64,000 bases of DNA from Felis catus (GCF_018350175.1 NC_058368.1:5084001-5148000), one strand, 5' to 3'. Shown: positions 15,401 to 18,400, numbered from the stretch's first letter. Numbers and translations: made by a program. Notes: generated by a model from the sequence alone, not told the origin.

Positions 15401-18400
15401 TTATAAATTTTATTTCCTAATTAATCAAAATTATATACAGCTTGCAATATGAAAACCAGTGCTATAGGAAGAACGTTTGTGTTAGCGGTTATGGTGGAAG
15501 ATACTGGTCGTCTGAGTAGTGTTATCCCACCTTGAAGATGATTCCAAGTCTCCCCTTGTGATAAACCCCCAAAATGCCATCTTCCACTGATGAATTAAAT
15601 TTTATTTCTCTTTTTGTCCCCAGGAATAGCAACAACTATAACTACAGGATTAACTCTGTGTAAGAATTTTTGAGGAAAGATTCCCAGATCTGTGGTTTTC
15701 TACTCTTCTCGTAATATCTCACAGAGCTGGGGTATAGAAGGAAGCATGTAAGGAACCTAACAGAGATCACAGACACTCATCACAGAACCTTTTAGTACTG
15801 GCGTGTTTTAAAAAGTCAGTGACTTTTTAATTCAGAAAAAAAGCCTTAAATACAGAAGTTTTTCTGTGGAAATTTCACATTACAGTTTGCAGTTATTTGA
15901 GTCCTTGTAGTGAAAAAAGCACCACACTACATAGCTCAGAAGTCTTGGAATTAAACCCGGCTTATACCTCCAAGTCGTTGTGAGGTCTTAGATAGTCATG
16001 TAATATCTGGCAGCTTTTAGTTACCTATAAAGTGAAAGTATTAGACTAAAAAGTTTTTGACTTCCTTCTGGCTCAAAAAACCCTCGTTCTCTGCAGTGAG
16101 ATGCCAAACGGAATGTGAGTAACTAGAATGGCGATTAATAATGTCAAAGGAAAGGAATGAATGAGAGGACAGTGAGGAGCCTCAATTAAAATTAAATTTA
16201 TTAATTAAAGTTAAACCAAAAGTTGAAATAAATTCAAGATTGGTGGACTTTTTTCATTTGGATGCTACTCACCTGGCATCGGGAGAAAGCATAGCACATC
16301 TGTTTACTACCAGCTGTTTGGACAGGACTGGCTTCAAGGACAAGCAGTTGGATTCTTTCATTTTCTGAGATTGTCAAACCCGTGCAGGATTTCAAAGCAC
16401 TGTACTCTGGCAGGAACTTCTGGTTGTGGTAAGGACAATCCAGAAGCTTAGTTTCTGGCTTCTTCGTGCTCTCGGGAGAAGCCAAAATGCAGGTTGTTAT
16501 ACATGTCTTCATTTAGTAGTTTTGAGCAGCTGCTGCTTCCTAACCGTGTGGCCTTAGGTGTGCATGACGGTTTGAACATTCAGTATTAGCTGTTGGTGTG
16601 GTGATGGTACTGGTGGTGAGGGCGGTGCGGATGACGTCAAGAACTGCAGAGTGTGTGAGCAGGGCATTCGGTGTGTTCCGAGGTGAAGGGGACAGGCAGG
16701 TGTAGTAATATGTTCTTGTGTGATCTGATAAAGGCCGTAACAGATGTATGAAAGGCACCAAGGAAGGAAGAGAAAGAAAAGGGTAGAAGTTTATTTGGGG
16801 GGCAGGAGACATTATTCCTGATGCAGGAATGGAAAGTGCAAAGGCCCAGTTCTAAAAGGACCGGGGAAGTAGGAAAAATACTCGGTTCTTAGAGTTTTGG
16901 ATTCAGAGGTGGGAATGGTACGGAGAGGGGATTTGAGGAGCAAGTTGGGACAAGATAGGAAAGGTGGTTGTGTGCCAGCCCTTTAGGCTGTAGCGTAGAG
17001 ATAGTAGAGAGCTAATGGGAGCCTTCAGTCCGGGAGAATCAGCAGGGTATTATTTTTTGTTGGTATTCTCGCTTGTTTTTAAAGTAACTAACTGATTCAA
17101 AGAATAGATTAGAGGTTAGAAGGACTGACAGCACAGAAACAAATCAAGAGGTTGTGATAATAGTTCTTGAGAGGGAGATGGCCTGAGCTAAGGTTTTTGA
17201 AGATGCTTGTAATCCAGGGATATTTCTGCAGGAGCATTGACAGGGTTTGTGGCTAGTGGAATGTAGGAGAGAGAAGGGGCATCAGGGAGGGTCGTGGCTT
17301 CTGGCACGAGCAGCTGAGAGGACCACGGCAGGGGATTTAGGAGTGCTTTTGTCTAGGGGGATGCAGAGGTGCAGAGGGACATCCAGGCAGAGCTAGCCAG
17401 GGGAGACTCCAGGGGGCGTAAATCAAGACCATGTTTCTGTGGTTGAAATTCTGCGGTTGGGAAGTAAGGAAGCAGGCCTGGTACCATAGGCAGCCTCATT
17501 TAAGAAGTGAACAGAGGAAGGAGATGGACGGAAGGAGACTGAAAGGAGTAGCGGGAGCTGACGGAAACCCAGAACACTAGGCAGTAGAGAATGCTGGTTT
17601 AAAGAGCCTTGGAGGGGAGGGAGACTTTTCTGCTGAGTATAAAGGAAGGGTAAATGCTCTTTTAGGTACATTCAGGGGTAGAGCTGAAAATGGATTTCAA
17701 CATTACCACAGTGACTGGACTTTTTTTGCTGTTCTTAAATCACAGGGCCATCTTTTTTAAGTATGCACCCTGATTTCGTCCCACCTTTTATATGTCACTT
17801 TTTCGTGCACATACAAGTACATGGATCCTTGTTCTAGCTGCAAAAGTAGACAGACTCCATCTTTTAGGGATCCTGATTGAAACTGATATGATACACACTT
17901 ACGGTAAAATAGGATCTGTTTGTCTGTTTGCGCAGGAACGCCAGCCACAACAGCCGCATCTACGACGGGTTTCAGTTTAGGATTCGCTAAACCTGCTGCG
18001 TCTGCCACACCATTTGCTCTGCCCATTACTTCTACCTCAGCTAGTGGTCTTACTCTTTCGTCTGCTCTGACGTCAACTCCTGCAGGTGAGGCACAATGGG
18101 AGAAGCCACCTCTTACAGTTGAATTCACTAGTTTTGCTGTCGGTGAACGTAGGTATCCACCTTTATTATTAAAGAGAACTTTGGTTTTGGAAAGTTTTTT
18201 TCAACCATGAGGCAGTTTTGACCTAGTAAACTACTGATTTGTGAAGAAGGCCATCACTGGTCCTTAAAGCAGGAGGGACCATCTTGGAAGTCAGTCTCTA
18301 TTTACAGAGCAAAGCAGGGACAGAGTGAGAGGCAAAATGTAAAATTATTAATATCCACTTTGTTTTCAGGGAGCATTTTGGTGACAGGGAAGGGTAAAGA

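Follow-up and report, generated by a model that had tools for sequence, protein, structure and literature searches.

In classic poison exons the stop codon is internal, the exon shows high conservation as a non-coding regulator, and its inclusion is regulated; SR-protein genes and RBM3 are examples of genes with poison exons or AS-NMD cassettes. According to the standard position rule, a stop codon becomes a target of nonsense-mediated decay (NMD) when the last exon junction follows it at a distance of more than 50-55 nt. A second general and common pattern is the lineage-specific loss of alternative exons by substitutions that disrupt a splice site or the reading frame. The closest described system is the NUP58 gene of mammals itself, in which a 36-nt cassette exon distinguishes a long (~599-aa) from a short (~587-aa) isoform. 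An earlier note on the feline NUP58 locus had left two options for its exon 3, a lineage-specific AS-NMD dosage switch or an exon in the process of being lost, and in the analysis presented here the exon being lost was the better supported of the two.

The window, which is the whole stretch of 64,000 nt of Felis catus DNA that was analysed, contains a complete and intact NUP58 (nucleoporin p58/p45) gene on the plus strand, with 16 coding exons running from an ATG at 9351 to a stop at 47010-47012 (Table 1). FG-rich coding pieces were picked up by a six-frame scan of the window, and the exons were then placed in two steps, by tblastn with two orthologous proteins (P0002 from a felid, P0007 from a hyaena) and by a splice-aware script. 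The matches to these two proteins span the 16 exons at mostly 92-100% identity, which establishes the gene as NUP58, and the matched NUP58 relatives carry the Pfam domain PF15967 in their precomputed annotation. Among the matches listed, NUP58 isoform X1 of Prionailurus iriomotensis (P0002) was closest to the exons of the window, with most pieces at 100% and exon 4 included, and this near-identical felid protein served as the guide for setting the exon 4/5 boundary. This closeness, against a tiger exon 4 that differs at 5/50 residues, places the source of the window in the small-cat branch of the felids. The resulting exons 4 and 5 have the same lengths as their human counterparts, which are given as 150 and 138 nt in the excerpted text of a human NUP58 study (PMC8561638). 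Three felid-labelled proteins match the exon 2 translation at 100% identity. The 25-nt exon 7, a constitutive micro-exon, has A at donor position -1 and a perfect intronic donor consensus, and P0002 shows a longer variant of the exon 7 junction. No Rfam family was found in introns 1-3 outside of 15593-15681, and an intronic RNA gene therefore offers no reason for keeping exon 3.

Table 1. Positions of NUP58 exons, splice sites and computed stop codons in the window, counted from its first nucleotide.
Feature	Position	Strand	Remarks
NUP58 coding exon 1	9351-9457	+	starts at ATG; tblastn matches of P0002 and P0007 begin at 9351
NUP58 exon 2, 143 nt	14154-14296	+	ends in phase 1 with a lone G; read from the sequence
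NUP58 exon 3, 36-nt alternative cassette	15624-15659	+	internal frame intact
Last base of exon 3 (donor position -1), T	15659	+	first base of the junction stop codon
Exon 3 donor, GT at 15660	15660-15665	+	+1 to +5 fit the consensus, +6 does not
In-frame TGA upon retention of intron 3	15671-15673	+	computed translation
NUP58 exon 4, 150 nt	17936-18085	+	first two bases GA
Alternative acceptor AG inside exon 4	17943-17944	+	exon 4 would then begin at 17945, 9 nt past its normal start
TAA in the shifted frame (codon 113), 34-nt exon 3 via GT at 15658	17988-17990	+	computed translation
NUP58 exon 5, 138 nt	18771-18908	+	
NUP58 exons 6-8	22447-22557, 27906-27930, 29029-29094	+	open
NUP58 exons 9-12	29412-29586, 32670-32749, 34788-34906, 35321-35403	+	open
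NUP58 exons 13-16	38227-38428, 43823-43918, 45507-45602, 46843-47012	+	open; stop at 47010-47012

Exon 3 was found to be just as the earlier note had described it: 36 nt long, with a strong acceptor and an intact frame, ending in T and followed by an exon 4 that starts with GA. Its acceptor AG is preceded by 18/20 pyrimidines at positions -23 to -4, making it the joint second best of the 15 acceptors of the gene. The note had further claimed that inclusion of this exon creates a TGA at codon 96, and joining the exons by script reproduced exactly this outcome, the first stop being assembled from 15659, 17936 and 17937. The initial GA of exon 4 thus has two fates, as it completes GGA (Gly) when exon 3 is skipped and TGA (stop) when exon 3 is included. 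When exon 3 is skipped, the frame stays open over 586 aa and the only stop is the terminal one, again as claimed, while inclusion does not carry the frame through a Gly junction. The two remaining outcomes that had been described could also be confirmed, namely that retention of intron 3 leads to an early TGA and that use of the GT at 15658 yields a 34-nt exon with a TAA in the shifted frame (Table 1); this GT fits the consensus at only 2/9 positions, and its U1 duplex is -1.9 kcal/mol. The junction TGA is located 1339 nt upstream of the last exon junction, so that NMD is predicted by the 50-55-nt rule, and inclusion of exon 3 places its premature stop as expected for a poison exon. Stop-codon read-through and selenocysteine incorporation at the junction TGA were considered and set aside, as nothing pointed to either and neither is needed with the skip isoform intact. 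Downstream of the exon 3 donor, at a distance of about 85 nt, there is a GCATG pentamer (15744-15748), the core of the RBFOX motif, although a single 5-mer is well within chance.

The strength of the donors was evaluated as the predicted pairing with the 5' end of U1. Overall, the exon 3 donor matches the consensus at 5/9 positions, and its U1 duplex of -4.3 kcal/mol is the weakest of the 15 donors of the gene, the other 14 spanning -5.3 to -11.8 kcal/mol. Placing G at position -1 brought the predicted duplex to -9.2 kcal/mol, which bears out the claim that a G>T change at this base weakens the donor. Two constitutive donors of NUP58, those of exons 8 and 10, have duplexes of -5.3 kcal/mol and are thus only ~1 kcal/mol stronger than the exon 3 donor, and appreciable inclusion of exon 3 is possible on these grounds. 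By this pairing model, the donor appears weakened but not necessarily dead.

Assaying the junction in other mammals enabled a reconstruction of the ancestral base. The exon 2 translation was searched against longer proteins (best 120 of 546 matches) and P0002 was used as a further query (best 120 of 1198), to which cluster members were added. Altogether, 275 NUP58 proteins were retrieved, of which 12 were without the region and 263 were informative: 145 of the inclusion type (~6 of these rows being mis-alignments, to judge by their odd cassette strings), 104 of the skip type, and 14 'partial' ones, which are mostly skip forms of cetaceans and bovids that were badly placed by the script. Exon 3 of the window is a true orthologue of the mammalian cassette. 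The hyaena protein P0007 (NUP58 isoform X1) matches the translation of 15623-15658 with 12/12 identities over its residues 84-95, the 36-nt cassette sits between exons of 143 nt and 150 nt and encodes the conserved 11 residues, and the 11-residue string of the window is the commonest variant, present in 67 orthologue rows. Annotated examples of both isoforms come from primates, rodents, carnivores, bats, ungulates and afrotherians, and human proteins of both types were among those retrieved, in agreement with the statement in the earlier note that human NUP58 has isoforms with and without these 12 aa.

Gly follows directly on the cassette in 138 of the 145 inclusion-type orthologues, and the other rows have Ser (3, cetaceans), Arg (1, Phyllostomus discolor), Glu (1, a short human alternative form) or no residue (2). 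These counts support G as the ancestral last base of exon 3, hence G>T, and a single G>T change at the last base of exon 3, as had been proposed, is the best reading of the aligned sequences; only T followed by GA gives a stop. Coding inclusion isoforms are in use in outgroups, as expected for a lost exon: they are annotated in hyaenas, canids, mustelids, seals and bears and in many other orders. Both feliform outgroups, Hyaena (P0007) and Crocuta (P0006), have the cassette followed by Gly, and the change consequently postdates the separation of felids and hyaenas.

Some other lineages showed peculiarities at the same exon. The cetacean isoforms P0204, P0209 and P0212 have Ser after the cassette and P0170 of Phyllostomus discolor has Arg, meaning that independent changes of the final exon 3 base occurred elsewhere among mammals, where no stop arose from them, and the top-ranked NUP58 isoforms of cetaceans are skip forms. 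In Myotis, 9/10 proteins (P0039, P0046-P0048, P0050-P0052, P0078, P0263 and P0063 being the ten) are skip forms and the tenth, an Ensembl model of M. lucifugus, has an unrelated 13-residue insert, while Eptesicus and Pipistrellus have kept the cassette. As none of the ten Myotis proteins has the normal cassette, the exon may have fallen out of use on more than one occasion, and an independent loss in Myotis is possible. The ferret has several 'p58/p45-like' proteins with slightly diverged NUP58 N-termini (P0009, P0024, P0034, P0036 and P0037), two of which are fused to an LNX2-like annotation; P0009, P0034, P0036 and P0037 have the cassette and P0024 is without both the cassette and exon 4. 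These ferret proteins may be retrocopies or assembly duplicates.

Three felid-labelled NUP58 proteins were seen, and all of them fit a disabled junction, none having the ancestral cassette followed by Gly. Exon 3 is skipped in P0002, which is isoform X1 of Prionailurus iriomotensis, and in tiger P0003, while tiger P0004 has the cassette with one Thr-to-Ile change, then Ser, and then exon 4 minus its first three residues. The sole reading of this cassette-Ser junction is that exon 3 of the tiger likewise ends in T and was joined to the alternative AG of exon 4. P0004 is a low-quality computational model with an N-terminus that runs into intron sequence, and it is evidence on the tiger genome, not on real splicing. 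Judging by this one low-quality tiger model and the three felid proteins, T at the end of exon 3 is probably felid-wide, and its apparent presence in the tiger suggests that it predates the split of big and small cats. Clusters with 43, 63 and 54 listed members contained tiger P0003 as the only felid protein, and clusters of 82 and 149 members were covered in part and may include additional felid isoforms. Short protein fragments that end at the junction stop would mark included transcripts; when the exon 2 translation was compared with proteins of 25-83 aa, there were four matches of 77-82% identity, none of them felid. Between small-cat P0002 and tiger P0003, 5/7 substitutions in their shared canonical sequence fall within the 50 residues of exon 4, and exon 4 of the window differs from that of the tiger at 5/50 residues. 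This FG-linker segment, directly after the cassette, seems to be fast-evolving in felids.

An in-frame escape from the junction stop, which is absent from the earlier note, was found through the alternative acceptor located 9 nt inside exon 4 (+9). Joining exon 3 to this acceptor turns the junction codon into T+CC, which is Ser, and opens a frame of 595 aa up to the normal stop; with exon 3 skipped, the same acceptor gives Ala at the junction and 583 aa. The +9 AG is part of a CAG, as at the normal site, and is preceded by 10/20 pyrimidines. Apart from the tiger model P0004, in which the cassette is joined at this acceptor, sloth P0013 has a skip form joined there. A further in-frame AG occurs in exon 4 at 17952-17953. 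The tract in front of the normal acceptor of exon 4 (17912-17935) is itself poor, with 13/20 pyrimidines and a longest run of 3, and the choice between the normal and the +9 AG might perhaps be less one-sided than usual. In addition, an alternative acceptor 6 nt inside exon 3, as in bear model P0040, was tried as a way around the stop and rejected, as it does not remove it.

The reading that I favour, with moderate confidence, is that felid exon 3, an alternative exon, was disabled in recent times and is now mostly skipped, and that its residual inclusion is unproductive noise, not a purpose-built dosage switch. In most placental mammals, this cassette contributes 12 residues to the N-terminal FG region of NUP58. 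The felid G>T would have hit two functions at once, since this one base serves as donor position -1 and also opens the codon that is split between exons 3 and 4. On the splicing side, it roughly halves the predicted pairing of the donor with U1, which should drive a tiny exon towards skipping. On the coding side, it turns the junction GGA (Gly) into TGA, such that an included mRNA with the normal exon 4 acceptor would stop at codon 96 and would be expected to be removed by NMD. The productive mRNA would then be the skip form of 586 aa, a form that is annotated across the sampled mammals including human, and the ancestral long isoform could presumably no longer be made, while a small share of included transcripts might stay in frame through the +9 AG (595 aa). 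Both the predominant skipping and the NMD of the included form are what I infer from the sequence. The human study reports that NUP58 retains its localisation and sustains growth when all 150 nt of exon 4 are missing (PMC8561638), and this tolerated loss of the neighbouring exon fits a dispensable insert.

The main competitor is that exon 3 is a regulated poison exon, which would be spliced in at a controlled rate to divert a fraction of the NUP58 pre-mRNA to NMD and thereby provide lineage-specific AS-NMD control of NUP58 dose, and I consider it unlikely. It can draw on the position of the inclusion stop, which satisfies the NMD rule, and on the state of the exon, which shows no lost splice sites, internal stops or indels: the acceptor with its 18/20 pyrimidines, the donor core from +1 to +5 and the exon frame are undecayed, which is evidence against decay. 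However, such an intact state would also be expected of a neutral stretch of 36 nt over the likely time span, as a rough estimate with mammalian substitution rates indicates. Moreover, the tiger has a Thr-to-Ile change within an otherwise near-invariant cassette, and the mutation weakens the very donor that a switch would need. The human study also reports that fitness tracks the expression level of NUP58 in human cells (PMC8561638); this dose dependence lends the poison exon some plausibility, and at the same time it implies that high unproductive inclusion would probably be costly. A literature search found no description of a NUP58 poison exon, and a name search with Felis catus found no literature on felid NUP58. 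A dosage switch of the AS-NMD kind is thus possible from the sequence but unsupported, and the combined claim, i.e. a working regulated poison exon that sets NUP58 dose together with a long isoform abolished across the whole family, seems doubtful to me.

Alternatively, the frame may be rescued, with felid exon 3 being joined mainly to the +9 AG, so that the 595-aa protein would keep the cassette, Ser would replace four junction residues, and the long isoform would be modified instead of lost. Its open frame up to the normal stop, the CAG at the +9 site, the sloth skip form that uses this acceptor and the tiger model P0004, which shows exactly such a junction, all speak for it. In 3' splice-site scanning, however, the first AG after the pyrimidine tract is favoured, and the normal AG of exon 4 comes first, directly after the tract, and hence should be strongly preferred. 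P0004 is, moreover, a computational model with an intron-derived N-terminus, and the NCBI model from Prionailurus was present only as a skip form among the proteins retrieved, all of which makes a predominant rescue improbable. It is more improbable still that the T at 15659 reflects an assembly error or a variant carried by the animal that was sequenced, with G and an unaltered long isoform being the usual felid state. The small sample of only three felid proteins leaves some room for this explanation, but the tiger model, which is from another species and another assembly, needs T at the same base, making an assembly error at this position unlikely. In addition, the site lies outside of any homopolymer, and 0/3 felid proteins have the cassette followed by Gly, while hyaenas, canids, mustelids, seals and bears do have it. 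The disabled alternative exon remains the preferred reading.

If T is fixed in cats, the whole family would be without the long NUP58 isoform that most placental mammals have kept, with its nearly invariant 11-residue insert, and cats would represent a natural isoform knock-out in which the function of the insert could be tested. The substitution is a clear example of how a single base can affect splicing strength and coding together, and the exon is also a possible starting point for the evolution of a poison exon. Beyond this, the case looks like one of ordinary alternative-exon loss and has no bearing on a long-standing open question.

Compared with the mammalian NUP58 cassette, the exon of the window is the same in gene, position, length and its 11 residues, but where the mammalian cassette leads into Gly (138/145), the T of the window bars a long isoform with the normal junction. 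Like poison exons and AS-NMD cassettes, it is a short cassette that, when included, introduces a premature stop long before the last junction; unlike in the classic cases, this stop is assembled from two adjoining exons, and it took one substitution in a single lineage, in an exon that used to be coding, to create it. The non-G last base of the same exon in cetaceans and Phyllostomus discolor is a parallel to the window, yet those changes are in frame and the inclusion isoform is still annotated there, whereas only the felid T together with GA makes a stop. The locus agrees best with lineage-specific exon loss, as one substitution both weakens the donor and destroys the coding use of the exon while a constitutive-like skip isoform remains, and with its acceptor, donor core and frame intact and an in-frame escape still available, the felid exon would represent an early stage of this process.
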